The translations under genes were made by a program, and so were the position numbers. Below, in pieces: positions 2,944 to 31,530 of a stretch of DNA of 64,000 nt. Position 1 is the stretch's first letter; every line of letters begins with the position of its first letter. The DNA is taken from contig JAZAUS010000002.1 of the NCBI GenBank assembly GCA_036342255.1, positions 6,334-70,333 on the forward strand, in the 5' to 3' direction. The DNA is from Bacilli bacterium (GTDB lineage Bacteria; Bacillota_I; Bacilli_A; RF39; UBA660). The notes below the pieces were generated by a model. That model saw only the letters and a program-made list of their open reading frames with translations. It was not told where the DNA came from and searched no databases.

Positions 2944-4068
2944 TTATTCTCTATTGCCTTTAGGTACTTGTTGTGTTATACAATGAATGTTTCCTCCACC
3001 TAGTAGAATTTCTCTAGCGTAGATTGGTTCTATTTTTCTATCAGGATATAGTTTTTGTAGTGTTTCAATTGCTTTTTTATCCATTGGATCATTAAATACT
3101 GGTAGAGCTATAAATCCATTGCCTGTCAAATAATTAACATAAGATGCTGCCATTCTATCACCTTCATTACGAGGTAATGTTCCCTCAACATAATCAATTC
3201 CACCACTCTCTTCTGCAGTAATAAATTGAGGAGATGGACAATACAATTTATGAATTTCTAATTTACGACCTCTAGCATCTTTTACTTTACTTAAATATTC
3301 ATAATCTTGTCTGCTAATTTTATATTGAGGGTCCTTCTTATCATCTGACCATGCTAATACTACAACACCAGGTCTAACAAAATTACAAATATTATCTACA
3401 TGTCCATTAGTATCTATGTCATTGTATAATCCTTTAGGAATCCATAATACTTTTTCTACATTTAAATAGTCTTTTAATATTTTTTCGATTTGTTTTTTCT
3501 TAAGTTTTGGATTTCTACCTGGAGATAGTAATGTTTCTTCTGTTACCATTGCTGTTCCTTCTCCATCAACATGGAAAGAACCACCTTCACAAACAAAATC
3601 TCTTATTTGATAGTAATCAACCCACTCAATTTCAGCCATTTTTTGACCTATACATTCATCAAAATCCCAAGGGAAGTATATTCCATCATAGAATCCTCCA
3701 TAGGCATTAAATCCCCAGTCAATTGCTCTTAGATCACCTTTTTTATTTACTAGGAATGTAGCTCCTGTATCTCTAGCCCAAGAATCATTATTAGATAATT
3801 CAATTACTCTAACACTATCTGGTAACATATTTCTAGCATTAGCATATTGATCTTTATTAACTAACATAGTCATTTTTTCATATTTAGCAATTGTACTAGC
3901 TACTTCAACAAATACTTCCTGAGCTGGTTTTGCACCATTACGCCAATTATCTGTTCTTTGTGGCCATAGCATGTATATTCCATCTTGTTCTTCGAATTCT
4001 CCAGGCATCCTAAAACCATCTTTTTTCGGAGTACTTTTTAGTCTTTTCAAATAAATCCCTTCTTTCAA
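2944..4068 (-). CDS. aguA: agmatine deiminase
   Basis: 374 aa; N-terminal STPKKDGFRMPGEFEEQDGIYMLWPQRTDNWR and C-terminal GGGNIHCITQQ match agmatine deiminase (AguA) family. Confidence 0.9.
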   Translation of the reverse strand: MKEGIYLKRLKSTPKKDGFRMPGEFEEQDGIYMLWPQRTDNWRNGAKPAQEVFVEVASTIAKYEKMTMLVNKDQYANARNMLPDSVRVIELSNNDSWARDTGATFLVNKKGDLRAIDWGFNAYGGFYDGIYFPWDFDECIGQKMAEIEWVDYYQIRDFVCEGGSFHVDGEGTAMVTEETLLSPGRNPKLKKKQIEKILKDYLNVEKVLWIPKGLYNDIDTNGHVDNICNFVRPGVVVLAWSDDKKDPQYKISRQDYEYLSKVKDARGRKLEIHKLYCPSPQFITAEESGGIDYVEGTLPRNEGDRMAASYVNYLTGNGFIALPVFNDPMDKKAIETLQKLYPDRKIEPIYAREILLGGGNIHCITQQVPKGNRE

Positions 4069-4116
4069 TTTCTTTTTTTATTAAAGGAATTCTTTATTTA
4101 GAATTCCTTTAATATT

Positions 4117-5517
4117 TTATTTTTTTACTTTTATTCTTGCAACTAATATTTCTTCACATATGAATGATAATATTACTCCAGCATATAGTGGAATACTATC
4201 CATTATATATTCACTTGTAAAATCACCAAATAATGTAAATATAATTCCAAGTACTAAGATTATAAATGGTACCCAGCCTGCTAAAGTGATAAGTGTTGGG
4301 CCTCCTGGTACTTTGTAAGGTCTTTTGGCTTTTGAATCTGTTTTTCTTAGTTTTAAGAATGCTAAGAACATTGGTGCATAACTAATTAATAAAGTTATCC
4401 AACTTAAACAGAAGAATAAGCTAAAACCTGCTCCAAAGTCTTCACTAACTAGATTTGCTATTATGCCACCTATTACAATAGCTGATGCAACTAGACCATT
4501 TATAAGTGCTGCTTTATATGGTACTCCTTCTTCATTAGTTGGAGTAAATATTTTTGGTAAACTTCCATCTTCTGCAGCATATTTAGCTACTTCATTTACA
4601 CCAAATGACCATGATGCGATATTAGCGATAAATGTATATATAAACATTAATCCTGCTACTATTACAAATGATTTCATTAGGCTACTACTTATACCAACTG
4701 CAGTAAATAATGCTGTTAAGACTTCTACAACATTTTCAGGATCCATTTTTGCTACTACTTTTGGTGATAGAGCAATATTAAATCCTGTTGCTGGTAAAAT
4801 GTAGAATATTGCCATTAGTAAGCCACCGAATATTAATGCTTTTGGTATTTCTTTTTTAGGATTTTCCATGTCTTCAGCCCAAGTTCCTACTACTTCAAAT
4901 CCCATAAAGTTGAATAATATTATTGAAATGAATGACCAACTTGCTAAATCCATAGATGGGAATAAGTCTCCTACACCTGTAATTGGATTTGCACTTTTTC
5001 CTGTTTTTAATACTGCATATATTCCTAATAGTCCAATTCCTAATAATAATACTATTTTAAAGATTGTTCCTAGGTTTACTACATATTTGCTTTCACCTAT
5101 TCTTTTTGTACTTAATAGTGTTACTATCCATACATATAATAATTGAATTAATAATAATGTTACAACAGTTAGTTCAATATTAAACATACCTGCTATTATA
5201 TCTGTTACAGCAACAGCTAATGATGCAATCCATAGTGGGAAATTAACCCAATAGTTCCAGGCAACACGTCCAGCCCATTTTGGACCAAATGCTCTTTTTA
5301 CCCAATCATACATTCCTCCTTCACTAGGATATGTAGTTCCAAGTTCTGCTGTAATCATACCATATGGTAGACAAAATGCTATAAGCAAGAATATCCACCA
5401 GAAATATTGTTGATTACCAATAGCAGCTGTTGGCATTACTGATTCACATACTAGTGTTAAACATACAGTTCCTAATATGGCATCAACTAATTTAAATTTT
5501 TTCTTTCCTTTTTCCAT
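4117..5517 (-). CDS. aguD: APC-family agmatine:putrescine antiporter
   Basis: 466 aa, about 12 predicted TM helices, APC transporter signature region near N-term; sits between aguA and putrescine carbamoyltransferase as in agmatine deiminase operons. Confidence 0.8.
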   Translation of the reverse strand: MEKGKKKFKLVDAILGTVCLTLVCESVMPTAAIGNQQYFWWIFLLIAFCLPYGMITAELGTTYPSEGGMYDWVKRAFGPKWAGRVAWNYWVNFPLWIASLAVAVTDIIAGMFNIELTVVTLLLIQLLYVWIVTLLSTKRIGESKYVVNLGTIFKIVLLLGIGLLGIYAVLKTGKSANPITGVGDLFPSMDLASWSFISIILFNFMGFEVVGTWAEDMENPKKEIPKALIFGGLLMAIFYILPATGFNIALSPKVVAKMDPENVVEVLTALFTAVGISSSLMKSFVIVAGLMFIYTFIANIASWSFGVNEVAKYAAEDGSLPKIFTPTNEEGVPYKAALINGLVASAIVIGGIIANLVSEDFGAGFSLFFCLSWITLLISYAPMFLAFLKLRKTDSKAKRPYKVPGGPTLITLAGWVPFIILVLGIIFTLFGDFTSEYIMDSIPLYAGVILSFICEEILVARIKVKK

Positions 5518-5531
5518 AATATACTCCTATT

Positions 5532-6524
5532 TTATTCTTCATTTAAATTTTTCTTGCATATTTCAATTGTTTCATCCATTTTCCCCATGAAATATATTAG
5601 TAATCCTCTCATTGCTGTTAGTCTATTCTCTGCTTCATCAAAGCAAATTGATATTTTTTCATCATCCATTACTTCATCTGTTACTTCTTCTCCTCTTGTA
5701 GCAGGTAAGCAATGCATAAATTTTACATTTGGAGAACATTTTTTAATCATATCCATATTTACTTGATATTTTGGATAGAATATTTTCATTCTCTCTTCTT
5801 TTGGAAGTTCTGATTCATATAATCCATACCAAACATCAGTATAAATAAAATCAGCATCCTTTAAAGCTTCTTGTGGGTTATCTGTAATTAAATAACTTCC
5901 TCCACTTGCTTTACAATTTTCCTCAAGTATATCTACATACTCTCCTTTTAATTGGAAATCTTTTGGACCATAGTGAACGTAATGACCACCCATCTTGGTA
6001 ATCATCATACCTAAAGATGCACATACTTGAGTACAATCTCCTACAAATACAACTTTACATTCTTCAATTGTTTTGTTTTCTGGTAAGTGTTCAAACATTG
6101 TAATGATATCACCCATCTCTTGAGTAGGATGATTATAATCACTCATACCATTAAGTACAGGTACAGTAGAATATTTTGCTAATTCTACTACTGTTTTATG
6201 TTGTTGAACACGAGCCATTATCACATCTACAAGTCTTGACAAAACAATTGAAGTATCTTTCATACTTTCATGTTTACCAAGCTGTATTTGCCCCGGTGCC
6301 AAATATTGAGCATGTCCACCTAATTGAGTCATTGCTGTTTCAAAAGAAACACGAGTCCTAGTAGATGATTGCTCAAAAATCATACCTAATGTCTTATGAT
6401 ATAAAACATTAAGTGGATATCCTGCTTTAATATTCTTCTTAATAAGAAGACTTAAATTAACGATATCCAATAACTCTTCCTTAGTAAAATCTTGAGTCGT
6501 AATATAATCTTTTACTCTCATCAA
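5532..6524 (-). CDS. aguB: putrescine carbamoyltransferase
   Basis: 330 aa; STRTR carbamoyl-phosphate motif, HCLP motif, near full-length similarity to enterococcal putrescine carbamoyltransferase by recall. Confidence 0.9.
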
Positions 6525-6684
6525 TCTCCTCCTTCTATTTTACATTTTTAGTATACCATAAGCTAAATTGTTTTTCAATTATATTTAACTAAAAAGATAC
6601 ATGAATGTTATTTTAATAATATTAAAAAAAGATATAAATTTAATCTATATCATTTTTAATTCTTATCATATAGTTATTAACAAA

Positions 6685-8736
6685 CTATTTCGTATGTTTA
6701 TTATAATATTTATCATTAGCAATATACATTTCTATTTTTACACCAATTTTAACTACTAATTCATTTAATATCTCTTTTATTTTATTATTATAATCTTTAA
6801 TATTATTTATATCATTATCTTCTAAACTTTTTAATTGCTTATTGATTGTATTTATTATATCTTTTCGCATATTTTTTTTCTGTTCTTCATTTAAAACATT
6901 ATCTTCTATATAATTATTTAATTCCTTAACTGTAGATGTTATAGCCTTATTTTGATCATCTTCTTTTAATGTTACTCTTCCATTTAATTCAGTTATTTCC
7001 TTACTTTCAGTCAACTCTTTAATTATATTATCTTTATTACATTTTTCTAATAATGGATTTCCCGCTCCCAATAATTCATAATATTTTAATAATTTTAAAA
7101 CAAACTGTAATTCTTTTCTCAATTCTAATTCTTTATCATTATATTTATCTTTCTTTAAAGGCTTAACATCTTTCTCTTTTAAAATATTTTTTAAATCATT
7201 TTTATATTTATTTATACAATCATTAAACTTATCTTCTAAAATTTTTCTATATTCTACACTTGATAAAGATTTAATACTTATTTTAATACCCGTTAATAAT
7301 TCTCCAATTTCTGTTTCATTATTATTCCCTTCCAAAGAAGAAAGTAACAATTCATACGGCAATTCATTATAATAATACTTTGATATTTCATCATATAATT
7401 TTGATATTTCTAAATCAAAGTATACATCTATATCTAAATCACTATTAATATCTTCTTTATTATTTATAATAGCCTTAATACTTGAATTTATTTTTTTAAT
7501 AGCTGTATCAATAATAGTATTAAAATCTTTTTCATATTTCTTTTTTTTATCATCTGGCATACTATTTATCATATATATAATATTATTTATTTTAGAATCT
7601 ATAGAATCAGCATCTTTTATAAAATCAAGTTTATCTTGAGATAATAATTCTTTATAACTTTCTAATTTAACAATTTTATCATTAGACTTTAAATTAAAAA
7701 TAATAAACTCTAGATTGGTTAATAACTTAGATTTTATATAACCAATATCATTTTTCCCAAAAATAAAATCATTACTTTCCCCATATACTGGACTTGTTTC
7801 CTCTACAGCTTTATCATATTCTTTTAATAACGCATCTACTTTATCATGTATACTATTTTTGATATCATCAGATAAATTATTACATATTTCATCTATTTTA
7901 TATAACAAATCCTGTATATCTTTAGAATACTTATTAATATCTTTAATATTATTTCCTTTATTATCATCTTCAGTTGACTTTTCATCATCTAGCAACTCAA
8001 TATTCACTGATTGCAAAATATCTTCTAGCATTGATTCATACATAAAAGAATACAAATGAGATTTTTTAATATCTTCACTAAGAGGATAACCTATATTTAA
8101 CGATATTCCTGATAATATGCCTTTTTGACATATAAACAATTCTTTTTGTCTATCCATTAACCATTTTATAGGCTTTACTTCGAACCATATTCGACGTCTC
8201 TTAGTATCATTTAAAAAAACATATTTCCTACCATTATACTCATATTCATCAAAAGGAACAAATCCTTCATTTCGATCTTTCAAATGATAACTCTTACCTG
8301 TTTTTTTCATTTCATAAAATTTCTTATTCAATTCTTTTTGCATTTTAGAATCAACTAAATCTTGAGGATATTCTCCAAATTCTACTTCATAATATCCATC
8401 AATATAGTTAGCTTTTGGTAACAACTTCTCAAATAAAAGAGGATATTTTATGACTGGAAGTATAATTCCGTACCATTCAGGTAAAAGACATTTACCTTCT
8501 TTACCATTTTCATCAAAACACTTTACATAATACTTATCCCTACTACGCCAATGTTCTTCATAAATAGTACCCTGAGTATAGAATTCCGGATAATTATAAT
8601 TACTAAGATTTTTAGCTAAATCAGTACAATTAAAATTGTAACCAAATCTTTTTATTACTTCTAATATGTTATCTCCCCATACTTCTTCTGGAGAAAGTAT
8701 ACCAATTTCTATTGAATCTGAATACATATTTATCAC
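6685..8736 (-). CDS. paralog family member P1 (type-1 N-module, 683 aa), function unknown
   Basis: N-term M..IEIGILSPEEVWG, YYEVEFGEYPQ, YEYNGRKYV, WFEVKPIKW, conserved C-terminal core ending IYIANDKYYNKHTK; no signal peptide. Confidence 0.8.
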   Translation of the reverse strand: MINMYSDSIEIGILSPEEVWGDNILEVIKRFGYNFNCTDLAKNLSNYNYPEFYTQGTIYEEHWRSRDKYYVKCFDENGKEGKCLLPEWYGIILPVIKYPLLFEKLLPKANYIDGYYEVEFGEYPQDLVDSKMQKELNKKFYEMKKTGKSYHLKDRNEGFVPFDEYEYNGRKYVFLNDTKRRRIWFEVKPIKWLMDRQKELFICQKGILSGISLNIGYPLSEDIKKSHLYSFMYESMLEDILQSVNIELLDDEKSTEDDNKGNNIKDINKYSKDIQDLLYKIDEICNNLSDDIKNSIHDKVDALLKEYDKAVEETSPVYGESNDFIFGKNDIGYIKSKLLTNLEFIIFNLKSNDKIVKLESYKELLSQDKLDFIKDADSIDSKINNIIYMINSMPDDKKKKYEKDFNTIIDTAIKKINSSIKAIINNKEDINSDLDIDVYFDLEISKLYDEISKYYYNELPYELLLSSLEGNNNETEIGELLTGIKISIKSLSSVEYRKILEDKFNDCINKYKNDLKNILKEKDVKPLKKDKYNDKELELRKELQFVLKLLKYYELLGAGNPLLEKCNKDNIIKELTESKEITELNGRVTLKEDDQNKAITSTVKELNNYIEDNVLNEEQKKNMRKDIINTINKQLKSLEDNDINNIKDYNNKIKEILNELVVKIGVKIEMYIANDKYYNKHTK

Positions 8737-8776
8737 TTCTCTCTACTATTATTTTTTGTTCATTTAATTATCTAAA

Positions 8777-11083
8777 CTATTTCGTATGTTTATTATAATA
8801 TTTATCATTAGCAATATATATATCTATTTTTAAACCTACATCTACTATTAAGTCATGTAAAATATTTTTTAATTCTTTATTATATTCTTTAGCATTTTTT
8901 ATATCTTTTGTTGTTAAATTCTTTATTGATTCATCTATTCTATTTATTAAGTCATTTCGCATTTCATTTTTGATTTCTTCTTCTATTACATTATCTACTA
9001 TATAGTTATTTAATTCTATTACTGTTGATGTTATAGCTTTTGACTCATCTTCTTTAGATATATCTTTTTTTATTTTTCTATTAATTATATCTTTACTTTC
9101 TTCTAATTCTTTTAAAATACTATCTTTATTATACTTATTATTAGATTGTTCTTCTAACACTTCTAATATATCATATTTTTTGATTAATTTTGCTAATTCT
9201 TGGATTTCTTTTCTTATACTAATCTCTATTTCTTTAGAATTAGTTTTCTTTAACAAATCATTATTATTTAAAATATCTGTTATTAACTGTATATACTTCT
9301 CTTTAATATTATTAAATCTAGTTTCTATATCGTCTTTGTATTTTATATTATTTTCTTTTAATTCTTTTATTTTTTCTTCTATTAATTTTATTTCTTCGAT
9401 AAGATTTGAACTATTATTGTCTTCTTTATTTAAGGCGTTTAGTAGCTTTTCAAATGGTAATGCAGTATTACGATATGATAATATTTCATCATATAGTTTA
9501 GATATATTTAAATCTAGTTTTCTATCTATATTAGAATCTTTTGATAGTGATAAATCTGGTTTATCATTAGTTTCTTTTTCTAATTCTTTTGATAATTCAT
9601 TAATAGCGTCATCTATAAAACTAATTAATGATTTTTCAAATGTCTCTTTTTTTGAATTGCTCATTTCATTTAATATAAATATAATATTATTTATTTTAGC
9701 CTCTGTTGAATTATCATCATTAACTAGTATAGTTCCATTTTGAGATAATAATCTTTTATATTTACTTAATTTTTCTAATAATTTAATAGTCTTGTCTTCA
9801 TTTTTTAAGTTTAGTATTATTAATTCTAAATTAGATAATAATGATGTTTTTAAATAAGCAATATCTTTTTTATCTATATCTAATTCATAGATATTTCCAT
9901 ATTTTGGTTTAGCTTCTTTTAAATCATTATCATATTGATCTAGTAAACTATTTACTTCATCCATTATACTCTTTTTGGTATTATCTGGTAGATTATTACA
10001 AATATCATATATCTTATCTAATAATTCTTCTATATCATTAGAATATTTATTAATTCTAGTTGGATTATCTTTTACTTTATTAATATATGATAATATTATC
10101 TCTTTTGGTAATATATTCTTAATTGTATTCATCGCAACATCACTTAATTCAGGACCATCTAAAATTATTTGAGCTATTCCTGTAAAATCTTTTAATTCTT
10201 CAATTATTGCTTTTAATTCATAAATATTATTATACTTAATTGTTTTTGTTAATTTTGTTGATTGTAAGATATCTTTTAAAAAGTATTTTTTTAAAAATTG
10301 TTCTGTATCTTCTCTAGATGGTTTTATAGTATGTACTTTTACATAATAACGTATTTTTAGATATATTTCTTCATATTCTTTTTCTGTTTTACATATATTA
10401 TTAAATAATCCTAGTTTAGAATATAATACTCCATCTTCTATCTCCCATTTTATAGGTAATACTTTAAGCCAATATACTTCATTATTATTGTTTATGAAAC
10501 GAATATATTTTTCATTGTTATACTCATATTCTTCATAAGATTTATATGTAGTTTTACAATGTTTATTAACTACCCTTCCACTAACAATACCAAAATTATA
10601 TTGTTTTGGCTTTATTACAACCTTAGGTTCTTCTTTTATTATTGTTGATGGGATAGTATAAGTCTTTCCTGTTTTTTTAAATTCTTTACTATTAGAAGAA
10701 CCTCTTTGAATAAATAATTGTTCTAGTTTTTTTTGAGTATCTGGCTCTACTTTAGTTTGAGGATATTCACCTAACTCTATGGTTTTACTGCTACTATTAT
10801 TTTTTGTAATTTGAGATAACAATTCAGCATCTAATTCTATTTTAGGATATACTGCTTTATCAGGATATCCTAAATAATCCTTAGTACTATCTTTATTAAT
10901 AGCCATTAATAGTGTTAAATCAGTGGAAGTAAAGTTTCCTTTGGTTAAGTTAGATACGGGATAGCCCATTCGTATTAAATATTCTTCATCTGTTTCTTCA
11001 GCATATGGAGTATTATCATCATAATGACTACGACTTTTATAATTTGGAATTTGTAAATCATTTAAATAATCTATGCTTATCAT
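8777..11083 (-). CDS. paralog family member P2 (type-2 N-module, 768 aa)
   Basis: N-term IDYLNDL, IELGEYPQ, YEEYEYNNEKYIRF, WLKVLPIKW, ILDGPEL, shared C-terminal core; last about 14 aa and 3' DNA identical to P1. Confidence 0.8.
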   Translation of the reverse strand: MISIDYLNDLQIPNYKSRSHYDDNTPYAEETDEEYLIRMGYPVSNLTKGNFTSTDLTLLMAINKDSTKDYLGYPDKAVYPKIELDAELLSQITKNNSSSKTIELGEYPQTKVEPDTQKKLEQLFIQRGSSNSKEFKKTGKTYTIPSTIIKEEPKVVIKPKQYNFGIVSGRVVNKHCKTTYKSYEEYEYNNEKYIRFINNNNEVYWLKVLPIKWEIEDGVLYSKLGLFNNICKTEKEYEEIYLKIRYYVKVHTIKPSREDTEQFLKKYFLKDILQSTKLTKTIKYNNIYELKAIIEELKDFTGIAQIILDGPELSDVAMNTIKNILPKEIILSYINKVKDNPTRINKYSNDIEELLDKIYDICNNLPDNTKKSIMDEVNSLLDQYDNDLKEAKPKYGNIYELDIDKKDIAYLKTSLLSNLELIILNLKNEDKTIKLLEKLSKYKRLLSQNGTILVNDDNSTEAKINNIIFILNEMSNSKKETFEKSLISFIDDAINELSKELEKETNDKPDLSLSKDSNIDRKLDLNISKLYDEILSYRNTALPFEKLLNALNKEDNNSSNLIEEIKLIEEKIKELKENNIKYKDDIETRFNNIKEKYIQLITDILNNNDLLKKTNSKEIEISIRKEIQELAKLIKKYDILEVLEEQSNNKYNKDSILKELEESKDIINRKIKKDISKEDESKAITSTVIELNNYIVDNVIEEEIKNEMRNDLINRIDESIKNLTTKDIKNAKEYNKELKNILHDLIVDVGLKIDIYIANDKYYNKHTK

Positions 11084-11124
11084 TCTATCATTCCTTTACA
11101 ATACAATTAAAGTATCTTTTTTAA

Positions 11125-13530: not shown

Positions 13531-13558
13531 ATTTGCCTCCTAATAATTCTTATTATGT

Positions 13559-16618: not shown

Positions 16619-17044
16619 TTATACTCTTTTATTTGTATTCTTTTTACCAAAAATATTTGTATTAATAAATATAAATATATTTGATATTAATATTATTGTA
16701 TCTATTAACAATCCAGCAAAAGAGAATACATGTATACTATATATAACCCTAGCTGTATATGAAATAATAGCTCCTATTGTTACATATTTCTTCTCTAGAG
16801 TTAGACTATAACCATCTACTAAACTAGCAAATATTGGTAAGTAATCATACCAATTTCTTACACATAATAAGCTTATGGATATATATAATATAGCGCTAAC
16901 TATAAATATATATTTATCTTTATCTGTTTTATAATATAAGAAATCTCTTGTTCCTTCAAGTAAATATGTACAAGCACCACTATAAGCACCTAATAAAATA
17001 TAATGAATAAAATCTAATGCTCCTGATATAATATGAAAAGACAA
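16619..17044 (-). CDS. small polytopic membrane protein inside the array; TTG start, possible 5' frameshifted extension to 17136
   Basis: 141-aa hydrophobic ORF; overlapping ATG-initiated 40-aa hydrophobic ORF (17014..17136) in another frame suggests frameshift or sequencing error. Confidence 0.4.
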   Translation of the reverse strand: MSFHIISGALDFIHYILLGAYSGACTYLLEGTRDFLYYKTDKDKYIFIVSAILYISISLLCVRNWYDYLPIFASLVDGYSLTLEKKYVTIGAIISYTARVIYSIHVFSFAGLLIDTIILISNIFIFINTNIFGKKNTNKRV

Positions 17045-17183
17045 TCTTTATTAGTATCTTTTCTAAAATAACTTAGTATTAAAAATAATCCTGCTAATAA
17101 ACCTATAAACTGTATTATTAAAAATTTTATTTCCATATTGTATCCCTTATTCTATTAATTATTTATTTTATAAATATTTTAAG

Positions 17184-21443: not shown

Positions 21444-21475
21444 ATTATCACTTCTTTCAGATTTTACTAAGTCTA

Positions 21476-23788: not shown

Positions 23789-23828
23789 ATTTTTAATCCT
23801 TCTTTTCATCTAAAATATAATATTACCA

Positions 23829-24578
23829 TTACTTTATTCCTTTTTTCTTGTTTAAATATTCATATATACATTTTTCTCTTTTTAAATCGTTATTTTTAAC
23901 ATTAGTATTAGGTAACATTTGATAATCACTAGCAACATATGGTGTACTCTTCTTTTTAAAAAATACTGTCTCTACAGTTGAATAATTTGTTCCATCAAAT
24001 CCAAATCCTTCAGATACTTCTTTAAAACCTAAACTATGATATAAGTTTTTAGCTCTTAAATTATGCATTAAGCAATCAAATCCTATTTCATCGAATCCTT
24101 CTTCATGCATTTGTTCAATAAAGTATTTCAAAAGCCTTTTACCTATACTTTTACCACGTAAATTAGTATCAATACATATATTGGTTAAATACATATATTT
24201 TTTCTCAACGACTTCATCTATTAATACTTTTAAATAATTATCTACTGTAAATTTATAATTATCATTTACATTAATTAAGTTAGTATAATCATAATCTAGA
24301 TTTGTAGTTGTATCAATAGCTCCACATATTCCTATTATTTTTTTATTTTCTTTATCATATGCAACATAAAAGTTTTCATAATGAAATATAAATCCTTCTT
24401 CATGCATTAATGGAACTAACACCTTTATAGCTTCATCCAAATTATTATTAAACCAAAAAGGATATATATATGGATCTGTATCATATATTAATCTAGCTAT
24501 CTCACTAAAATCATCATCTATAGTAGCCCTTCTCAATATTATATCATCAAAATTTATTTCATAACTTTTCTTACTCAT
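23829..24578 (-). CDS. GNAT-family N-acetyltransferase embedded in the paralog array
   Basis: 249 aa; acetyl-CoA binding-like motif NLRGKSIGKRLL (R/Q-x-x-G-x-G/A) in translation. Confidence 0.6.
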   Translation of the reverse strand: MSKKSYEINFDDIILRRATIDDDFSEIARLIYDTDPYIYPFWFNNNLDEAIKVLVPLMHEEGFIFHYENFYVAYDKENKKIIGICGAIDTTTNLDYDYTNLINVNDNYKFTVDNYLKVLIDEVVEKKYMYLTNICIDTNLRGKSIGKRLLKYFIEQMHEEGFDEIGFDCLMHNLRAKNLYHSLGFKEVSEGFGFDGTNYSTVETVFFKKKSTPYVASDYQMLPNTNVKNNDLKREKCIYEYLNKKKGIK

Positions 24579-24616
24579 TATTTTATTCTCCTTATATCTT
24601 TTATATTTAGTTATTT

Positions 24617-26752
24617 CTATTTAATACTCTTATTATAGTTATTTACATCCTTAACATAAATTTCAGTTCTTATTCTTATATTAATTATCTCACCTAATAT
24701 CTTATTTAATATATCATTATATTCTTTTTCATTTTTAATATCTTTTTTTTCTATATTTAGAATATATTTATCTATAATATTATTAAATTCAATTCCTATC
24801 TGTTCTATAGTTTTTTGATCTGTTATATTATCCATTAGATAATTATGAGTTTCTATGACAGTAGAAGTAATTGCCTTTAATTCATCTTTTTCAGATAATT
24901 GTCTAATTCCTGAAATATTAATAATAATCTTACTTTCTCTTAATTGTTCCAAAATATTATCCTTATTATATCTTCTATAACCATATACATCTAGTAAATT
25001 ATTCTTCTTTATTAATTTTAATAATGATTGTAATTCTTTTATTAAATCTGTTTCTATTTCATCATAATTTGTTTTATTAAACAATTCATCATTACCTTGA
25101 AGTTCATTAAGTAATATATCTCTTAATTTATCTATATATTTATTTCTAATAGAATTATATTTATTATTTACTTCTTCTTTATATTGGTTATTTGGTAAAT
25201 AGCTAATAATTTCTTCTATAGATAACAATAGATCTTTTATTTCAGAATTAATATGATTCTCTTTTAATAAAGAGCTTAATAGTTCATGAAGTGGAGCAAT
25301 TTTTTCATAATAAGATTTTACTTCATCGTATAGTTTTGAAATGTTTAATTCAAATTTTTTATCAATATCAAATTCTTTTTTTGTTGTTAAATCTATTTCA
25401 TTATCTATATCTTTTTCTAATATACTTGATAAGTCTTTAATAGCATCATCTATATATTTTGTTAATTTATTTTTTAGTATTATATCTTTACGTCCAGTAG
25501 TTTTATTCAACATAAAGACAATATTATTAATTTTATTATCTATAGAATTATCATCTTTTATTAATTCTAACTGTTCTTTTTTTGTTAATTTCTTAAAACT
25601 ACTTAATCTTTCTAAATACTTAATAGTTTTATCTTCATTATTTAAATTAGATATAATTATTTCTAATTTAGTTATTAGTAGTGGCTTTAATAATCTTACA
25701 TCTTTTTGTTCAAGACTAAAAGTTTCATTGAGACTAAAACTTGGTTTTAAAGAATCAATATCTTTATCATATTCTTTTAATATATTTTCTACATTTGATA
25801 AAACATTATTTTTAGCATTATCTGGCAAGTTATTACATATATCATTTATTTTATCTAATAAATCTTGAATTTCTTTTGGATATTTATTAGATTCTTTTTT
25901 TTCTATTTTTGATTGTTCTGTTATTTTTTCTTTTACATCATTATTAAAAGAAATATTTATACCATTTGGTATTAATAAACTAATTCTTTTTTCTTCAAGA
26001 AAGCTTAATTTAGGTCCACAAAAAACAATATTAGTAATTCCTTTATAAACCTTAAATCTATTGTTATCTTCAATTATATTCTTTAATTCAGTAAAATTTT
26101 GATAATTAATTGTTTTTTTAAAATTAACGGATTGTAAAATATCTTTCAAAAAATATTTTTGTAAAAATTTAGTAGTTTTTTCATATGCTATGGTGTAATT
26201 AAGATGAGAATTAGCACTATAATCTCCTTCTAATAAATAATTAAGCAATCCATCTCTTGAATATAAAACTCCACCTTCAATTTTCCATTTTATTGGTAAT
26301 ACTTTAAACCAACCTTTTTCAGTTATTTTAGTTTCAATATCATAAAAAGCATAGCGAATATACTTTTTACCTTTATATTCAAATTCTTGAAATATTTTTT
26401 TATTTGTTTTAGGATAGCCTTTTTCTAATCTAGATATTTCAATTGTAAAAGTATTACCAGTAGTTTTTAACTCTTCCTGGTAAGATTGATACTTTTTTTC
26501 CAATTCTTCTCTTAATTTTTGTTCAACTCTCTCTTGAGGATAATATCCTAATTCTATCATTTTTACATTAGGATCATTATTTGTTTTTAGTGATAATATT
26601 TCTTCTGGTATTATTAATTTAGGATAAACAAATTCTTTAGAAAAGATGGATTTTTTTGATCTATTAAGATTTGCAAAAACTGTACCCTGAAGATTTACAT
26701 TTATCTTTTTTTTCTCATCTTCAGTCATATCATCAATTATTATTTTTTTCAT
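24617..26752 (-). CDS. paralog family member P8 (type-2, 711 aa; first in transcription order)
   Basis: IELGYYPQ, FQEFEYKGKKYIRY, WFKVLPIKW, FLKDILQSV, YPKEIQDLLDKINDICNNLPDN core. Confidence 0.8.
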   Translation of the reverse strand: MKKIIIDDMTEDEKKKINVNLQGTVFANLNRSKKSIFSKEFVYPKLIIPEEILSLKTNNDPNVKMIELGYYPQERVEQKLREELEKKYQSYQEELKTTGNTFTIEISRLEKGYPKTNKKIFQEFEYKGKKYIRYAFYDIETKITEKGWFKVLPIKWKIEGGVLYSRDGLLNYLLEGDYSANSHLNYTIAYEKTTKFLQKYFLKDILQSVNFKKTINYQNFTELKNIIEDNNRFKVYKGITNIVFCGPKLSFLEEKRISLLIPNGINISFNNDVKEKITEQSKIEKKESNKYPKEIQDLLDKINDICNNLPDNAKNNVLSNVENILKEYDKDIDSLKPSFSLNETFSLEQKDVRLLKPLLITKLEIIISNLNNEDKTIKYLERLSSFKKLTKKEQLELIKDDNSIDNKINNIVFMLNKTTGRKDIILKNKLTKYIDDAIKDLSSILEKDIDNEIDLTTKKEFDIDKKFELNISKLYDEVKSYYEKIAPLHELLSSLLKENHINSEIKDLLLSIEEIISYLPNNQYKEEVNNKYNSIRNKYIDKLRDILLNELQGNDELFNKTNYDEIETDLIKELQSLLKLIKKNNLLDVYGYRRYNKDNILEQLRESKIIINISGIRQLSEKDELKAITSTVIETHNYLMDNITDQKTIEQIGIEFNNIIDKYILNIEKKDIKNEKEYNDILNKILGEIINIRIRTEIYVKDVNNYNKSIK

Positions 26753-26780
26753 AAAAACCTCCTATAATTTTAATTATATA

Positions 26781-27779
26781 TTATTTTATATCTGCCCATA
26801 TATTATCATATTTGCTAATGTTATTTCCTATATTTTTTACATAATACCCATTATTGAATATTTTTTGTGGAGATATTATACTGTTTTGTTTTATATTATT
26901 GGGACTTATATATGGATATTCTTTAGTTATACTGTCACTTACTTCATTTCTTAATAAATAATTAATGAATTTATAGGCATTTTCTAAATTTTTAGCTCCT
27001 TTTACTATACAGTAATTATCAGTACTTATGGCATGTCCTTCTTTGGGATCAATTATTTCTATATTTGGATTTTTTTCTTTTGCTAATTCGGCTTCGGCGT
27101 TCCACATAACGCCGATATCTGTTTCTTCTGTTATAAAGAAGCTTTTAGGACTATCACTATCATAGGCTTTTACGTTTTCTTTTAATTTTAATAGCCAATC
27201 TTTGGCTCTATCTAAGGCTATTGAATCTGTTGAACTCATATCATAGCCATTGGCTAATAGAGCCATTCCAATTATTATTCTTTGATCTTCTATAAGTACG
27301 ATATTATTTTTATATTTTTTATTTAATAAATCATTATAGCTTGATATTTTATCTTTAATATTATTTCTATTTACTGCTATTACTACTTCTGTTGTTAAGA
27401 ATGGTAGTGAGTAATCATTGTTGTAGTCATATACTTGTCTTAAAAATATATTATTTAAATTATTAATATTAGTTATTTGACTTTTATCTAATTGTTGAAT
27501 TAATCCTCTTTTTTTCATTAATTCAACCATATAATCACTTGGAAATATTACATCATATGTTCCTTCTTTAGAAGAATTAACTTTAGCTAATAATTCTTCA
27601 TTTGATGAATAAGTACCATAATTAACTTTAATTCCGGTTTCTTTTTCAAAATTTGATATTACTTCATCTGGAATGTAAGACGACCAATTTAGAACGTTTA
27701 CACTATTATTACTATTAGTATTTTTAGAACAGCCTGTTAAAATAATAAATAATAATATTAGTAGTAGTTTTTTATTCAT
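26781..27779 (-). CDS. potD: spermidine/putrescine ABC transporter substrate-binding lipoprotein
   Basis: 332 aa, lipobox LTGC after signal peptide; follows potABC. Confidence 0.8.
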   Translation of the reverse strand: MNKKLLLILLFIILTGCSKNTNSNNSVNVLNWSSYIPDEVISNFEKETGIKVNYGTYSSNEELLAKVNSSKEGTYDVIFPSDYMVELMKKRGLIQQLDKSQITNINNLNNIFLRQVYDYNNDYSLPFLTTEVVIAVNRNNIKDKISSYNDLLNKKYKNNIVLIEDQRIIIGMALLANGYDMSSTDSIALDRAKDWLLKLKENVKAYDSDSPKSFFITEETDIGVMWNAEAELAKEKNPNIEIIDPKEGHAISTDNYCIVKGAKNLENAYKFINYLLRNEVSDSITKEYPYISPNNIKQNSIISPQKIFNNGYYVKNIGNNISKYDNIWADIK

Positions 27780-28564
27780 CTTACTTCACCTGCTGCTATC
27801 TTTCTTGATTGATTTATAGCTGATGCTGTTAAGATAATTATTGTTACTAGTAGCATTAGTGTTGATAAGGCATTAACATCAGGAGTGATACCTGTTTTGA
27901 TAATAGAATATATTTTTAATGGTAATGTATTACTTCCTGGTCCAGCCGTAAAATAACTTATTACTACATCATCCATTGATAGAGTGAAAGCTAATGTTGC
28001 TCCACTTATTACACCCGGCATAATGGATGGTAAAGTTATTTTTAAAAAAGTTGTAAATTCATTTGCTCCTAAATCAGCTGCTGCTTCTTCATATGTTTTT
28101 ATTAGTGGTGATAAGGTTGAGCGTACACTAACTATTACATATGGTATTGAGAAAGCTATATGTGATAATATTAGGGTAAACATTCCTAGTTCTAATTTTA
28201 ATAAAGTATACATTGATAATAGAGATATACCTAATACTATTTCTGGTATAACTATTGGTATATAGATTAATTTGTTTATTAAATTTTTTCCTGGAAAATT
28301 GTGTTTATTTAGGCCTACAGCACCTATAGTGCCTATTATTGTTGAGATAACAGTACTAGTTATAGCTATAATCATGGTATTTATAAATGCTTCTAATAAA
28401 TCTCTGTTGTGAAGTAAGGTATTGTACCATTTAAAAGTAAAGCCTTCAAAAATAATATTCATTTTTGAAGTATTAAAAGAAAACACTATTAGTATGATAA
28501 TTGGTAAATATAGGAAGAAGAATACTAGTGCAACAAATAGGTTTTTTAAGTGTTTATTTTTCAT
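27776..28564 (-). CDS. potC: spermidine/putrescine ABC transporter permease
   Basis: 262 aa, 6 TM, ABC permease EAA-like region; 4-nt overlap with potD. Confidence 0.8.
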   Translation of the reverse strand: MKNKHLKNLFVALVFFFLYLPIIILIVFSFNTSKMNIIFEGFTFKWYNTLLHNRDLLEAFINTMIIAITSTVISTIIGTIGAVGLNKHNFPGKNLINKLIYIPIVIPEIVLGISLLSMYTLLKLELGMFTLILSHIAFSIPYVIVSVRSTLSPLIKTYEEAAADLGANEFTTFLKITLPSIMPGVISGATLAFTLSMDDVVISYFTAGPGSNTLPLKIYSIIKTGITPDVNALSTLMLLVTIIILTASAINQSRKIAAGEVR

Positions 28565-29419
28565 TTACATTCCTCCTAATTCATCTAATTTACCACCAAG
28601 TTTTTTATAAATTTGTACTAATATGAAAGTAACAAGGATTAAGAAAATTGAAATAGCTGAACCTAACGGCCAATTTCTTGCGGTTAAGAATTGGTTTTTA
28701 ATTAAATTACCTATTATCATTACTTTTCCTCCACCTAATATATCAGCTATAAAGAAATATCCAATAGCTGGTATAAATACCATTAAAGACCCATTAAAAA
28801 CTCCTGATATGGTTTCTGGGACAATGATATTTTTAAACACTTTAAATGGAGTTGCTCCTAAATCTCTGGCTGCTTCAATGATGTTTTCATCAATTTTGAA
28901 GACAGCACTGCATACTGGCATTATCATAAATGGTAATAATGTATATGTCATACCTATAATAATGCCTATGTTATTATACATTAATGATAGTGGTTTATCT
29001 ATTAAGGATAATCCTTGCAAAGTATTATTTATTACTCCTGTTTTTCTTAAGAGAACTATCCAACCATAGGTTCTAATTAGAGAATTGGTTAGGAATGGTA
29101 TCATTACTAATTTGGTCATTAGATTTCTGGTTGATTCTTTTTTTTCTCTTAATATTAGAGCAAATGGGTATGCTATACATATACATATTATAGTAGTTAT
29201 TATGGCTATTAAGCTTGATTTTAATAGAATTCTAATATATGTTAAGTTAAAGATAGTTAAATAATTTATTAGGCTAAAATTATATATAACTCCGCCATAT
29301 GAATCGTTTTGACAGAAGCTTAAGAAGAATATATAAATTAGAGGTAATAGTATTAAGATAAGGCTATAGATGGTAACTGGTAAAATAAATAGGTATTTAA
29401 ATAATTTATTTTTATTCAT
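28565..29419 (-). CDS. potB: spermidine/putrescine ABC transporter permease
   Basis: 284 aa, polytopic permease; overlaps potA by 8 nt. Confidence 0.8.
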   Translation of the reverse strand: MNKNKLFKYLFILPVTIYSLILILLPLIYIFFLSFCQNDSYGGVIYNFSLINYLTIFNLTYIRILLKSSLIAIITTIICICIAYPFALILREKKESTRNLMTKLVMIPFLTNSLIRTYGWIVLLRKTGVINNTLQGLSLIDKPLSLMYNNIGIIIGMTYTLLPFMIMPVCSAVFKIDENIIEAARDLGATPFKVFKNIIVPETISGVFNGSLMVFIPAIGYFFIADILGGGKVMIIGNLIKNQFLTARNWPLGSAISIFLILVTFILVQIYKKLGGKLDELGGM

Positions 29420-30488
29420 ATTTTTTTCCTCTAATTGGTACTATATCTTCATCTTCTATTTTTATATATATTTCTTCTTCTTCAATAAAATCTATATTAC
29501 CATTGGTATTAACTTTTAAATCTAATTCTCCTTCAGTATCGATAAATAATTTTGTAATAGCGCCATCATAAACAACATCTTTAACTACTCCTTTAATACT
29601 ATTTTTTAAGGGGTTCTTTGATATTTTTATGTTTTCTGGTCTTATTAGAATGCTTATTCTATTTTTTACTTTATCTGATTCATGTTTAGGAATTGTAAAT
29701 GTTATATTATCTTCTATTTTTATTTTGGTTTCATCATTTTTAATAGAGGTAATTATACCAGGGATGATGTTGGATTCTCCTATAAAGTCTGCTGCAAATA
29801 TGGTATTTGGTTTACGATATATATTTTGTGGAGTATCATTTTGTTGAATTATACCTTTATCAATAATAACGATACGATCACTCATAGTTAAGGCTTCATC
29901 TTGATCATGAGTAACATAAATAAATGTTATTCCTAATTTTTTTTGTATTTTTTTTAGTTCTATTTGCATTGTTCTTTTTAATTTAAGATCTAGTGAACAT
30001 AATGATTCATCTAGTAATAGTACTTTAGGATTCATTATTACTCCTCTGGCAATAGCTACTCTTTGTTGTTGTCCTCCTGATAATTGAGATGGTAATCTAT
30101 CTTCAAATCCTTCTAGTTTCACTAACTTTATAACATTTTTTACCCTTTTTTCTATTTCTTCAGGATCAACTTTTTTCATTTTTAAGCCAAAGCTTATATT
30201 ATCCCAAGTTGTCATATGTGGAAATAAAGCAAAATTTTGAAAAATGGTATTTACTTCTCTTTTGGTTGGATCAACATTTGTTACGTCTACATTATCTAAA
30301 TAAATTTTACCATTTGTTACTTTTTCTAATCCTGATATCATTCTAAGAATAGTTGTTTTACCACAACCAGATGGACCTAATAGAGTTAAGAATTCTCCTT
30401 CATATATGTCTAATGATAAATTTTTAATTACATATTTATCATTATATTTTTTAGAAATATTATCTAATTTTACAATTACTTTTTCCAT
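29412..30488 (-). CDS. potA: spermidine/putrescine ABC transporter ATP-binding protein
   Basis: 358 aa; Walker A GPSGCGKTT, ABC signature LSGGQQQRVAIARG, C-terminal TOBE-like domain. Confidence 0.85.
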   Translation of the reverse strand: MEKVIVKLDNISKKYNDKYVIKNLSLDIYEGEFLTLLGPSGCGKTTILRMISGLEKVTNGKIYLDNVDVTNVDPTKREVNTIFQNFALFPHMTTWDNISFGLKMKKVDPEEIEKRVKNVIKLVKLEGFEDRLPSQLSGGQQQRVAIARGVIMNPKVLLLDESLCSLDLKLKRTMQIELKKIQKKLGITFIYVTHDQDEALTMSDRIVIIDKGIIQQNDTPQNIYRKPNTIFAADFIGESNIIPGIITSIKNDETKIKIEDNITFTIPKHESDKVKNRISILIRPENIKISKNPLKNSIKGVVKDVVYDGAITKLFIDTEGELDLKVNTNGNIDFIEEEEIYIKIEDEDIVPIRGKKYE

Positions 30489-30555
30489 ACTATCTCCCTC
30501 TATTTTCTTTATTTAATTATATCATTATAATATATATAAATCAATTATTTAGAGA

Positions 30556-30587
30556 TATAAAAAAGAGTATTAAATATTTAATACTCT
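30556..30587 (-). terminator. rho-independent terminator after carbamate kinase
   Basis: perfect hairpin agagtattaaa/tttaatactct (30564..30587) preceded on + strand by A-run (T-run on minus). Confidence 0.6.
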
Positions 30588-30588
30588 G

Positions 30589-31530
30589 TTATTTGTTTTT
30601 GATTATTGTTCCTGTTAATCCTTTAACAGCATCACTTGCTTTCTCTAGTGAAGATATGATAGCTTTTCTAGTATTATCTCCTTTTACAAAGTCGATACAT
30701 GCTTCTACTTTTGGAAGCATACTTCCTTTAGCAAAATGTCCATCATTTATATATTTTTCTGCTTCTTTTACGGTTAGTTTATCTAACTCTTTTACTTTTG
30801 GAGTATTATAGTTTAGACATACTTTGTCAACTGCTGTTAGAATTAGTAATGTGTCTGCCTTTATTTCTTTGGCAAGAAGGGCTGCGGATCTATCTTTATC
30901 TATTACTGCTTCAACTCCTTCTAATAATTCTATTTTATTAGTTTTTATTACTGGAATTCCTCCACCACCTACTGCTATGACTATATTATCATTATTTACT
31001 AGTTGTTCAATAACATTTTTTTCAATGATATCGATAGGTTTAGGAGATGGTACTACTCTTCTATAGCCACGACCGGCATCTTCAACAAAAACATATCCTT
31101 TTTCTGCTACAATTTTGTCAGCTTCTTCTTTAGTATAAAATTTACCAATTGGTTTAGTTGGGTTGGAGAATGCACTATCTTTAGGATCAACTAGGACTTG
31201 TGTTATTAGTGTGGCACAATTCTTTTTTACTTTTTGACGTTCTAATTCATCTTGTAAGCATTGTTGTAATTGATATCCAATATAACCTTGACTCATACTT
31301 CCGCATTCTGGAAATGGCATTGATGGAGTTTTCACTTCACCTAAATGAGAATAATCCATAGCTAGAAATATTTGACCTACTTGTGGACCATTTCCATGTG
31401 TTAATACTATTTTGTTACCACTTTTTACTAAGTCAACAATTATTTTAGCAACACCTTCTAATAAATCTAATTGTTCTTCAGGACTATTACCTAAAGCATT
31501 TCCTCCTAGAGCTATTACTATTTTACTCAA
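30589..31530 (-). CDS. arcC: carbamate kinase
   Basis: 313 aa; N-term MSKIVIALGGNALG and amino-acid kinase fold motifs typical of carbamate kinase. Confidence 0.85.
   Translation of the reverse strand: MSKIVIALGGNALGNSPEEQLDLLEGVAKIIVDLVKSGNKIVLTHGNGPQVGQIFLAMDYSHLGEVKTPSMPFPECGSMSQGYIGYQLQQCLQDELERQKVKKNCATLITQVLVDPKDSAFSNPTKPIGKFYTKEEADKIVAEKGYVFVEDAGRGYRRVVPSPKPIDIIEKNVIEQLVNNDNIVIAVGGGGIPVIKTNKIELLEGVEAVIDKDRSAALLAKEIKADTLLILTAVDKVCLNYNTPKVKELDKLTVKEAEKYINDGHFAKGSMLPKVEACIDFVKGDNTRKAIISSLEKASDAVKGLTGTIIKNK

Follow-up and report, generated by a model that had tools for sequence, protein, structure and literature searches.

We propose that three predicted transcription units make up a chromosomal agmatine/polyamine island at this locus, and the best overall explanation of the island, which we hold to be probable, combines a history of gene rearrangement with expansion of a gene family in a variable hotspot. 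The island, from an uncultured ruminant-gut bacterium, is an ordinary one for agmatine fermentation and polyamine uptake, a variant in gene order that contains no new pathway, and the sole novelty left is the function of the arrayed family.

Gene content and predicted transcription units

The window, i.e., the whole stretch of 64,000 nucleotides analysed, carries aguB, aguD, aguA, a serpin gene, potABCD, a carbamate kinase gene (CK) and eight paralogs, all on the minus strand and at the positions given in the initial annotation.

1341-2927, minus strand: serpin (PF00079, 157.6 bits)
2944-4068, minus strand: aguA, agmatine deiminase (TIGR03380, 568.9 bits, cut-off 381.8)
4117-5517, minus strand: aguD, APC-family permease (Pfam AA_permease_2, E 5e-46)
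5532-6524, minus strand: aguB, putrescine carbamoyltransferase (TIGR04384, 545.9, cut-off 500)
26781-27779, minus strand: potD (top match the E. coli PotD model, below cut-off)
27776-28564, minus strand: potC (top match the E. coli PotC model, below cut-off)
28565-29419, minus strand: potB (top match the E. coli PotB model, below cut-off)
29412-30488, minus strand: potA (TIGR01187, 364.8, cut-off 355.6)
30589-31530, minus strand: CK, carbamate kinase, arcC/aguC orthologue (TIGR00746, 385 bits, cut-off 358)

The agu proteins share 80-93% identity with their counterparts in three related loci (L001, L004 and L095), and AguD reaches the cut-off of none of the equivalog models. The potABCD genes (26781..30488, minus strand) are predicted to encode a spermidine/putrescine-type ABC importer, and PotD carries a lipobox (LTGC). 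As had been noticed, CK lies about 24 kb from aguBDA on the same strand with potABCD and the paralog array between them, and a serpin gene stands where aguC is expected, starting 16 nt past the aguA stop codon. The serpin is predicted to be membrane-anchored by a transmembrane segment at residues 19-37, and its alignment to conserpin places the reactive-centre-loop hinge at GIKAAAATAV; none of the related loci was found to carry a serpin.

From spacing, hairpins and consensus matches only, three units are predicted. CK would be transcribed alone and end at its own terminator; potABCD would continue through all eight paralogs, and the GNAT gene and frameshifted ygjV among them, as far as a terminator after paralog 1, with none detectable inside the unit; and aguB-aguD-aguA-serpin would be read from a conserved promoter.

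A complete pathway in an unusual order

The canonical order of agmatine deiminase operons is aguBDAC (PMC3796520), and putrescine carbamoyltransferase (PTC) was identified in PMC514541 and PMC3282769. The four functions of the aguBDAC operons of Enterococcus faecalis, Streptococcus mutans and Lactococcus, namely putrescine carbamoyltransferase, an APC-type permease, agmatine deiminase and CK, also occur in the window, where aguB-aguD-aguA keep the matching order and orientation. Unlike in those operons, CK precedes potABCD, 24 kb upstream, and has its own terminator, a serpin gene is found 3' of aguA, no AguR-type regulator gene is seen near these genes, and potABCD is the conserved upstream neighbour in the clade of the window. 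Judging from gene position, AguD would exchange agmatine for putrescine, whereas the remaining steps follow family membership: AguA would yield N-carbamoylputrescine and NH3, AguB putrescine and carbamoyl phosphate, and CK ATP from carbamoyl phosphate. As all four functions are present, the pathway is predicted to stay complete despite the separate expression of CK.

The window CK and those of 53 metagenome loci ordered arcA-arcB-CK-arcD share an orthologous group (65-83% identity), and the CK terminating the fused agu-arc superclusters in L001, L004 and L095 is a further match. Unlike in arcABCD clusters, the linkage of the window CK is to pot and agu genes only, and no arcA, arcB or arcD was found within the 64-kb window.

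Proposed relocation of the carbamate kinase gene

In every relative covering the interval (L001, L002, L003, L005, L006, L035 and L095) potABCD is directly upstream of aguBDA, and the extended -10 element upstream of potA (TGATATAAT) is kept in L001, L002 and L006. CK directly follows aguA in L020 (aguA 94.5% identical to that of the window, CK 81%), L035 (CK 78%), L002 and L003 (52%), and L087 and L092 (48-49%). Arc genes precede it in L001, L004, L016 and L095, and 53 of 80 metagenome loci have it inside arcA-arcB-CK-arcD. A position upstream of potA is shared by the window and L015 alone, the two CKs being 94% identical; the window CK is 81-83% identical to those of L001, L004, L016, L018 and L020.

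The initial annotation had offered the insertion of the array and pot genes into an agu/CK operon as one account of this order. A split of an ancestral CK-aguBDA (or aguBDAC) operon by potABCD and the array is suggested by CK and aguBDA sharing a strand, by the 24 kb between them holding nothing but pot and array, and by the lack of the array in most relatives; we nevertheless find it very improbable. The array is indeed an addition with respect to relatives, seven of the eight other genomes covering the region upstream of aguB being without it (L001, L002, L003, L005, L006, L035 and L095). The pot genes, on the other hand, were not inserted, since they adjoin aguB in all seven relatives covering the interval and their promoter element is conserved. 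The CKs of relatives lie downstream of aguA, a CK upstream of aguB with no pot genes in between is seen in no relative, and as the canonical order is aguBDAC (PMC3796520), insertion cannot yield a CK-pot-agu order. Since only the window and L015 have CK ahead of potA, we conclude that CK was relocated. A CK normally unlinked to aguBDA, together with absence of the array, had been named as evidence against the earlier view; CK proves to be normally agu-linked in the clade, and only the absence of the array was borne out, in seven of eight genomes.

We propose that the ancestral order of the clade was potABCD, a short variable gap, aguBDA and CK, that some lineages have arc genes between aguA and CK, and that in the lineage of the window and L015 the presumed single catabolic CK moved to just upstream of potA, the serpin now filling the aguC slot. 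The direction of this move was read by parsimony from draft MAG and metagenome contigs, among which L001 and L004 group as sisters (aguB 97% identical) with the window outside them (91%). A search for a mechanism found no IS element and no repeats.

The potD-aguB gap and its paralog array

The gap between potD and aguB is a naturally variable hotspot of accessory genes. It measures about 80-130 nt in L002, L003, L005, L006 and L035, 1.5 kb in L001 (a GNAT gene and ygjV) and 4.5 kb in L095 (two GNAT genes, ygjV and small ORFs); in L004/L012 it holds an LRR-type array and a speD-like gene, and in the window it reaches 20.3 kb.

6685-8736, minus strand: paralog 1
8777-11083, minus strand: paralog 2
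11125-13530, minus strand: paralog 3
13559-16594, minus strand: paralog 4, 1011 aa, N-domain duplicated (three profile stretches)
16619-17136, minus strand: YgjV-family membrane protein gene (PF10688)
17184-19322, minus strand: paralog 5
19341-21443, minus strand: paralog 6
21476-23809, minus strand: paralog 7
23829-24578, minus strand: GNAT acetyltransferase, 249 aa (Pfam Acetyltransf_1)
24617-26752, minus strand: paralog 8, 711 aa, 28 nt past potD without a terminator between (AF2 model, pLDDT 84)

The GNAT and YgjV genes, though interleaved among the paralogs, are older residents of the pot-agu gap and not members of the array. The ygjV gene carries a 1-nt deletion (frameshift) at about 17040-17052, and DNA alignment with the L001 orthologue shows its 5' 30 codons kept out of frame. 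The embedded GNAT had been taken as a hint of polyamine acetylation, for which we find no support: a presumed orthologue (73% identical) has a YgjV gene as its neighbour in the L095 gap, where there is no array, a 68% identical homologue accompanies a YgjV gene in L098 in a polysaccharide/TIR context without pot or agu genes, and the top matches of the window GNAT are RimI-like, with none of the SpeG models matched.

The array (6685-26752) consists of eight paralogs of 683-1011 aa, 34-41% identical to paralog 1 over their full length and 38-50% in the C-terminal module. They are monophyletic, the L004 paralogs, which have LRR_5 N-domains, falling elsewhere in the tree; the eight thus represent a lineage-specific expansion, which may have filled a hotspot already holding GNAT and YgjV genes. 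The paralogs are soluble and modular, with a variable N-terminal beta-rich domain and a conserved C-terminal helical-bundle rod of about 430 aa; neither transmembrane segment nor signal peptide was detected in them, and no Pfam, PHROG or PADLOC match. Most likely they are binding or scaffold proteins, and the family would be a fast-evolving passenger of the hotspot rather than a set of polyamine enzymes.

Homologues of the C-terminal helical module bear LRR_5 N-domains of the BspA-type LRR families of gut Firmicutes (P0009, P0011, P0014-P0016 and P0105) and, like the window paralogs, occur in tandem arrays (L004/L012, L100); by contrast, LRRs are absent from all eight window paralogs. The beta-rich N-terminus of the latter, for which no Pfam model matched, carries EFGEYPQ and W-x-V-x-P-I-K-W as motifs. 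A likeness of the YPQ and W motifs to DUF6273 is taken as a lead only. Copies of DUF6273 also occur in some distant N-domain homologues (P0116, P0033 and P0048); this domain (PF19789) is a C-type-lectin-like ligand-binding domain and a target of diversity-generating retroelements (PMC10743442).

Alternative readings of the array

We think it unlikely that the paralogs and the embedded GNAT serve in the metabolism or sensing of polyamines under joint regulation with potABCD and aguBDA. The genes are co-directional with spacers of 18-47 nt and no terminator separates potD from paralog 8, the first terminator-like hairpin following paralog 1, so that the array may be co-expressed with potABCD and a functional tie is possible. 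GNAT homologues adjoin pot, agu or CK in L001, L023 and L095, and in L004/L012 another array sharing the C-module immediately precedes a speD-like gene and aguB, a matching place that could reflect more than a shared hotspot. Against this, the window and L004 arrays are not mutual closest relatives, seven relatives that retain pot-agu have none of the family, other members adjoin parAB/rnpA, relA/dtd and further unrelated genes, homologues have the N-domain exchanged for BspA-type LRRs, a GNAT-YgjV pair also occurs apart from pot and agu genes, and the paralogs have no catalytic, transport or small-molecule-binding signature. The tie suggested earlier is hence unsupported.

That a mobile element or prophage remnant brought in the array as cargo on integrating between potD and aguB would suit a variable hotspot and the GC content of the array (0.20-0.24), which is below that of the agu genes (0.31-0.32), but the GC3 of the array (0.09-0.13) equals that of its neighbours. 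No integrase, transposase or phage gene, no PHROG or PADLOC match and no flanking or near-identical repeats were found, nor any relative in a scan of viral contigs. With paralogs interleaved with resident GNAT and ygjV, local birth-and-death fits better than a single insertion, and we regard cargo as quite improbable. Least credible, and barely so, is a chimeric MAG contig joined at the repeated paralogs. Such repeats break assemblies, the Logan contigs L009 and L014, as well as L012, end in or at the edge of an array, and the MAG contig alone shows the interior joins between paralogs 7 and 1 and that of paralog 1 to aguB. Independent Logan assemblies nevertheless span CK-potABCD-paralog 8-GNAT-paralog 7 at 100% identity (L014) and aguB-aguD-aguA-serpin and onwards (L009), the CK-potA junction recurs in L015, a different genome (84% nucleotide identity) ordered CK-potABC, and the paralogs, 60-79% identical at the DNA level, are too diverged for misjoins.

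Promoters, terminators and RNA hairpins

30558-30587, minus strand: terminator-like 10-bp hairpin and U6, directly 3' of the CK stop codon (-9.3 kcal/mol, z -2.6)
30516-30544, minus strand: promoter-like site of potABCD, TTGATT-17-TGaTATAAT
6624-6651, minus strand: terminator-like hairpin and U7 after paralog 1 (-13.7 kcal/mol over a 76-nt stretch, z -2.6)
6550-6578, minus strand: promoter-like site of aguB, TTGAAA-17-TGgTATACT
4079-4114, minus strand: 15-bp stem-loop between aguD and aguA (-17 kcal/mol, z -8.1)
1289-1341, no strand assigned: strong hairpin between an A-run and a U-run (-17.4 kcal/mol, z -6.2)

The terminator ascribed to CK is thus present; the CKs of L001 and L004 have no such hairpin downstream. 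Two promoters had been proposed, at 6.5-6.7 kb and 26.75-26.8 kb. The former agrees with the aguB site, which is conserved in L001 and L004, and the latter finds no support, falling in a gap of 28 nt that holds just a ribosome-binding site; the scan of this 25% GC sequence returned fewer promoter sites than shuffled controls. The hairpin after paralog 1 marks the end of the predicted pot-array unit, and that at 1289-1341 is a bidirectional terminator between the serpin gene and a convergent ORF (382-1281). The stem-loop between aguD and aguA, which has no U-run on the mRNA strand, is kept in relatives with covariation, compensatory changes affecting 4 of its 9 pairs (7 genomes).

Gene content of the locus

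The locus departs from a known pathway cluster in gene order alone: its genes encode a complete, conventional agmatine deiminase pathway. Every gene from 1341 to 31530 lies on the minus strand, at the coordinates and with the co-directionality that the initial annotation had given.

Genes of the locus and the model matches that identify them
1341-2927, minus: serpin (PF00079, 157.6 bits) with an N-terminal membrane anchor
2944-4068, minus: aguA, agmatine deiminase (TIGR03380 equivalog, 568.9 bits against a cut-off of 381.8)
4117-5517, minus: aguD, APC-family permease between aguB and aguA (AA_permease_2, E 5e-46)
5532-6524, minus: aguB, putrescine carbamoyltransferase (TIGR04384, 545.9 bits against a cut-off of 500)
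6685-26752, minus: array of eight paralogous ORFs of 683-1011 aa, with a GNAT and a YgjV gene interleaved
26781-29419, minus: potB, potC and potD (top matches the E. coli Pot models, under their cut-offs)
29412-30488, minus: potA, ATPase (subfamily TIGR01187, 364.8 bits against a cut-off of 355.6)
30589-31530, minus: carbamate kinase, CK (TIGR00746, 385 bits against a cut-off of 358.25)

AguB is not an OTC, as its TIGR04384 score of 545.9 bits exceeds the 331 bits that it obtains with the OTC model TIGR00658. AguD reaches no NCBIfam equivalog at cut-off (the top one is TyrP, 155 against 630), and its position between aguB and aguA suggests an agmatine/putrescine antiporter. The transporter genes have the architecture of a Pot importer (an ATPase, two permeases and a periplasmic-type binding protein), with scores of 261 against 348 for potB, 286 against 326 for potC and 232 against 582 for potD, and a specificity for polyamines is predicted. 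Judged by family membership, PotABCD would import polyamines and AguD would exchange agmatine for putrescine; AguA would form N-carbamoylputrescine, from which AguB would release putrescine and carbamoyl phosphate, and CK would use the latter and ADP to produce ATP. No AguR-type regulator domain was found with Pfam in the scanned ORFs between 382 and 33512, a range that excludes exoIII (33521-34279) and a P-type ATPase (34322-36928).

The contiguous order aguB-aguD-aguA-aguC is absent from the window, in which CK is located 24 kb upstream of aguB and aguA is followed by the serpin gene; this canonical order is seen in six related loci (L002, L003, L020, L035, L087 and L092). The rearrangement carries little weight for metabolism; operon-based calls that need aguC beside aguA would, however, wrongly score this genome as incomplete.

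Gene order in related genomes

The window belongs to a contig of 198,741 bp from the MAG 'Bacilli bacterium' (locus tags VZS44_012xx) and has a GC content of about 25%. Because the genes elsewhere in the window are of the housekeeping kind (iPGM, SMC, a ClpB/ClpC-like ATPase, a SpaA-type pilin and a tRNA), we consider it chromosomal and not an obvious mobile element; megablast detected no match to the agu genes among plasmids. Six close loci were obtained by an AguA scan of GTDB species representatives, in which the nearest relatives recovered were ruminant-gut MAGs, 80 further loci came from a metagenome scan with CK, and L095-L099 from two look-ups of GNAT homologues. All were annotated with Pfam and by tblastn/blastx searches in which proteins of the window and L001 served as the panel. 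By aguB/aguD identity, L001 and L004 are sisters (97%/94%) and the window lies outside both (91%/82%), while the aguB genes of remoter relatives are 88% (L095), 87% (L035) and 71-74% (the L002/L003/L005/L006 group) identical. Independent Logan assemblies reproduce both CK-potABCD-paralog 8-GNAT-paralog 7 and aguBDA-serpin.

Gene order in related loci (percentages are identities to the window's proteins)
L002, L003: potABCD-aguBDA-CK-ygjV; CK only 52%
L005, L006: potABCD-aguBDA-ygjV
L035: potCD-aguBDA-CK; CK 78%
L020: aguA-CK; aguA 94.5% over the last 73 residues, CK 81%
L001: potABCD-GNAT-ygjV-aguB-aguD-aguA'-aguA-arcA-arcB-arcD-(amino-acid ABC transporter)-CK-rpsP; CK 82%
L095: potABCD-two small ORFs-GNAT(206 aa)-ygjV-GNAT(248 aa)-three small ORFs-aguBDA-(ABC)-arcA-arcB-CK; GNAT(248 aa) 73%
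L004/L012: at least three array genes-speD-like-aguB-aguD-aguA'-aguA-arcA-arcB-arcD-CK; CK 82%
L015: CK-potA-potB-potC-potD'; CK 94%

Two explanations had been offered for the distance between CK and aguBDA, either that the pot genes and the array were inserted into an ancestral agu/CK operon or that the paralogs are tied to polyamine metabolism, and both fail in their main claim. In every relative that spans the interval potABCD is directly upstream of the agu genes, and an extended -10 element, TGATATAAT, is kept 5' of potA in the window, L001, L002 and L006. This adjacency and the conserved element argue that the pot genes were not inserted; pot and agu together form the conserved backbone of a polyamine island. 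Of the insertion account one narrower point holds, that the array is a lineage-specific addition, a single clade of eight window paralogs. As for the second account, the array shows no tie to polyamine chemistry.

In five relatives potD and aguB are ~80-130 nt apart, against 1.5 kb for L001, 4.5 kb for L095 and 20.3 kb for the window; what fills the interval also changes from case to case (one or two GNATs, ygjV, small ORFs, a speD-like gene, or arrays). On the aguB side the window, L001 and L004 become homologous again ~95 nt upstream of that gene, and this stretch contains a conserved promoter element, TTGAAA-17-TGgTATACT. The variable size and contents between homologous flanks indicate that the gap is an accessory-gene hotspot, and it provides a clear example of one within a conserved metabolic island.

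Position of the carbamate kinase

The window's CK falls in one orthologous group (65-94% identity) whose members occupy several neighbourhoods: inside arcA-arcB-CK-arcD in 53 of the 80 metagenome loci, at the end of an agu-arc supercluster in L001, L004, L016 and L095, immediately 3' of aguA in L020 and L035, and, among the loci compared, ahead of potA only in the window and L015. From ~40 nt upstream of CK through potC, L015 and the window share 84% nucleotide identity, beyond which L015 has a different gene, and the CK-pot junction is therefore a shared derived feature of a sub-lineage. By parsimony, the ancestral site of CK was downstream of aguA and the gene relocated in the lineage of the window and L015. 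No mechanism of relocation is visible at the locus; as a speculation, exactly the order CK-pot-agu would result if pot-agu-CK had been duplicated in tandem and the two copies had then undergone reciprocal losses. A single catabolic CK gene thus moves between agu, arc and pot neighbourhoods in this ruminant-gut clade, and none of arcA, arcB or arcD is present within the 64-kb window.

Three relatives (L001:6444-18133, L004:6389-15987 and L095:9359-17674) carry fused superclusters of agmatine and arginine deiminase genes with a single CK at the end. L001 and L004 have in addition an extra copy of aguA (52-53% identical), and in L004 a speD-like (AdoMet_dc) gene is directly upstream of aguB. In the window, genes for an SPFH/Band-7 membrane protein and an Mbeg1-like (PF11187) protein (31607-33512, minus strand) are directly upstream of CK; no relative has either of them beside CK or pot. 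A short rumen contig (L023:5-1520) carries a GNAT gene 44% identical to that of the window directly ahead of a CK (77%), a further GNAT-CK adjacency.

The GNAT and YgjV genes

The presence of a GNAT in the array had been taken to hint at polyamine acetylation. The window protein has the GNAT fold (Acetyltransf_1, E 2e-12), and yet it matches no SpeG model, its top NCBIfam model being RimI (38 bits against a cut-off of 86), and in the PDB its top match is BH1408, human SSAT2 appearing only at E 6e-4 over 68 residues. Its sequence thus lends no support to a polyamine N-acetyltransferase of the SpeG/SSAT type. In L098 a GNAT(249 aa)-ygjV pair is found among polysaccharide-synthesis and TIR-domain genes, without pot or agu genes; as the pair occurs outside the pot/agu context, the GNAT says little in favour of a polyamine function for the array.

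Both genes are older residents of the potD-aguB gap: the window GNAT shares 73% identity with the L095 gene, and the YgjV proteins of the window and L001 share 73-78%. A GNAT of 248-249 aa and a YgjV-family gene recur as neighbours in the window (23829-24578 and 16619-17136), L095:6379-7674 and L098:10001-11660, which suggests a conserved two-gene module. The YgjV-family gene of the window (16619-17136, minus strand) is full length, but compared with its L001 orthologue it lacks 1 nt, and the resulting frameshift at ~17040-17052 leaves the first 30 codons, which encode the first TM helix, in another frame. Either the gene is a true pseudogene or the assembly is wrong at this point; the DNA alignment, which shows a 1-nt frameshift, rules out that the short ORF arose by 5' truncation upon insertion of paralog 5.

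The array paralog family

The eight ORFs of the array are true paralogs, 34-41% identical over the full length, 38-50% in the C-terminal module and 60-79% at the DNA level. A profile HMM of all eight, scanned against 1.84 billion representative proteins, gave 1356 matches, the top eight of which are the window's own proteins (at least 787 bits, the next scoring 350 bits); a word-index search with paralog 8 returned paralogs of its own MAG only, low-complexity words having saturated the candidate list. Two modules make up the profile. Most of the 1356 matches are to the N-terminal domain (~1-280), often in stand-alone proteins of ~300 aa, and the C-terminal module (~257-738) is found among roughly the 50 strongest (E <= 1e-30 for the whole profile), the majority of which carry BspA-type LRR_5 N-termini. 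In paralog 4 (1011 aa, 13559-16594, minus strand) the N-terminal domain is duplicated internally, residues 5-335 and 415-587 each matching it, and the shared C-module follows.

In a tree of the C-module the window paralogs form one clade, indicating that they expanded in the window lineage, and the array genes of L004/L012 (proteins P0016 and P0017, with LRR_5 N-domains) are placed elsewhere. The family is absent from the other loci L001-L099, and in readable neighbourhoods its members elsewhere adjoin parAB/rpmH-rnpA, or lie between relA and dtd, or among unrelated genes. The paralogs lack both signal peptides and TM segments, and all but one of the eight are acidic. In GC3 the array does not differ from its neighbours, and neither recombinase genes nor flanking repeats were found at it.

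Several identities were considered for the family. The paralogs have no match in Pfam, PHROG or PADLOC, and the C-module alignment recovered no relatives from metagenome and viral contigs; the lack of PHROG and PADLOC matches and of a viral-contig relative rules against a prophage or an anti-phage defence island. No near-identical repeats, as of a diversity-generating retroelement or recent gene conversion, were detected. LRR_5 repeats occur only in homologues that share the C-module and not in the paralogs themselves, which are thus not BspA-type LRR_5 proteins. A resemblance to DUF6273, which has a C-type-lectin-like fold (PMC10743442), was also tested and rejected, neither a PF19789 nor a C-type-lectin fold match being obtained. 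Our reading is that the array probably encodes fast-evolving soluble binding or scaffold proteins, locally expanded in a permissive gap. With eight copies here and about 50 public proteins that carry its C-terminal module, and with no annotation, Pfam model or informative structural neighbour, the family may merit a description of its own, and it is here, together with small side observations, that the residual novelty of the locus resides.

Transcription units, serpin and RNA elements

Transcription units were predicted from spacing, hairpins and conserved promoter elements. At the GC content of the window a consensus promoter scan was uninformative, giving fewer sites than shuffled sequences, and for promoters we rely on just the two sites that other genomes share. 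Because the terminator scan requires three G-C pairs, it missed AT-rich hairpins, which were checked by folding. The first predicted unit is CK alone, and the terminator attributed to it in the initial annotation is indeed present, as a 10-bp hairpin and U6 after the stop codon. The second, with -8 to 47 nt between its genes, would begin with potABCD, continue as far as paralog 1 and be closed by a terminator-like hairpin and U7 (6624-6651). The third, aguB-aguD-aguA-serpin, would end at a strong bidirectional terminator (1289-1341). Transcript ends are accordingly predicted near 30560, 6630 and 1290, and starts near 30510 and 6545.

The serpin gene starts 16 nt after aguA and is probably co-transcribed with aguBDA, and it is missing from all related agu loci examined. 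The hinge of its reactive-centre loop, GIKAAAATAV, aligns to GTEAAAATGV of conserpin and is of the canonical inhibitory type, so that the protein is a predicted inhibitor. Convergent with it is a 299-aa ORF (382-1281, plus strand), and a 406-aa ORF lies beyond the window start (L009:6467-7687); neither has a Pfam, PHROG or PADLOC match.

Rfam contains no known RNA family at the locus. Between aguD and aguA a 15-bp stem-loop (4079-4114; -17 kcal/mol, z -8.1) without a U-run on the mRNA strand is conserved in place across seven related genomes, 4 of 9 pairs showing compensatory changes, and matches no Rfam family; it may serve as an intra-operon processing or stability element.
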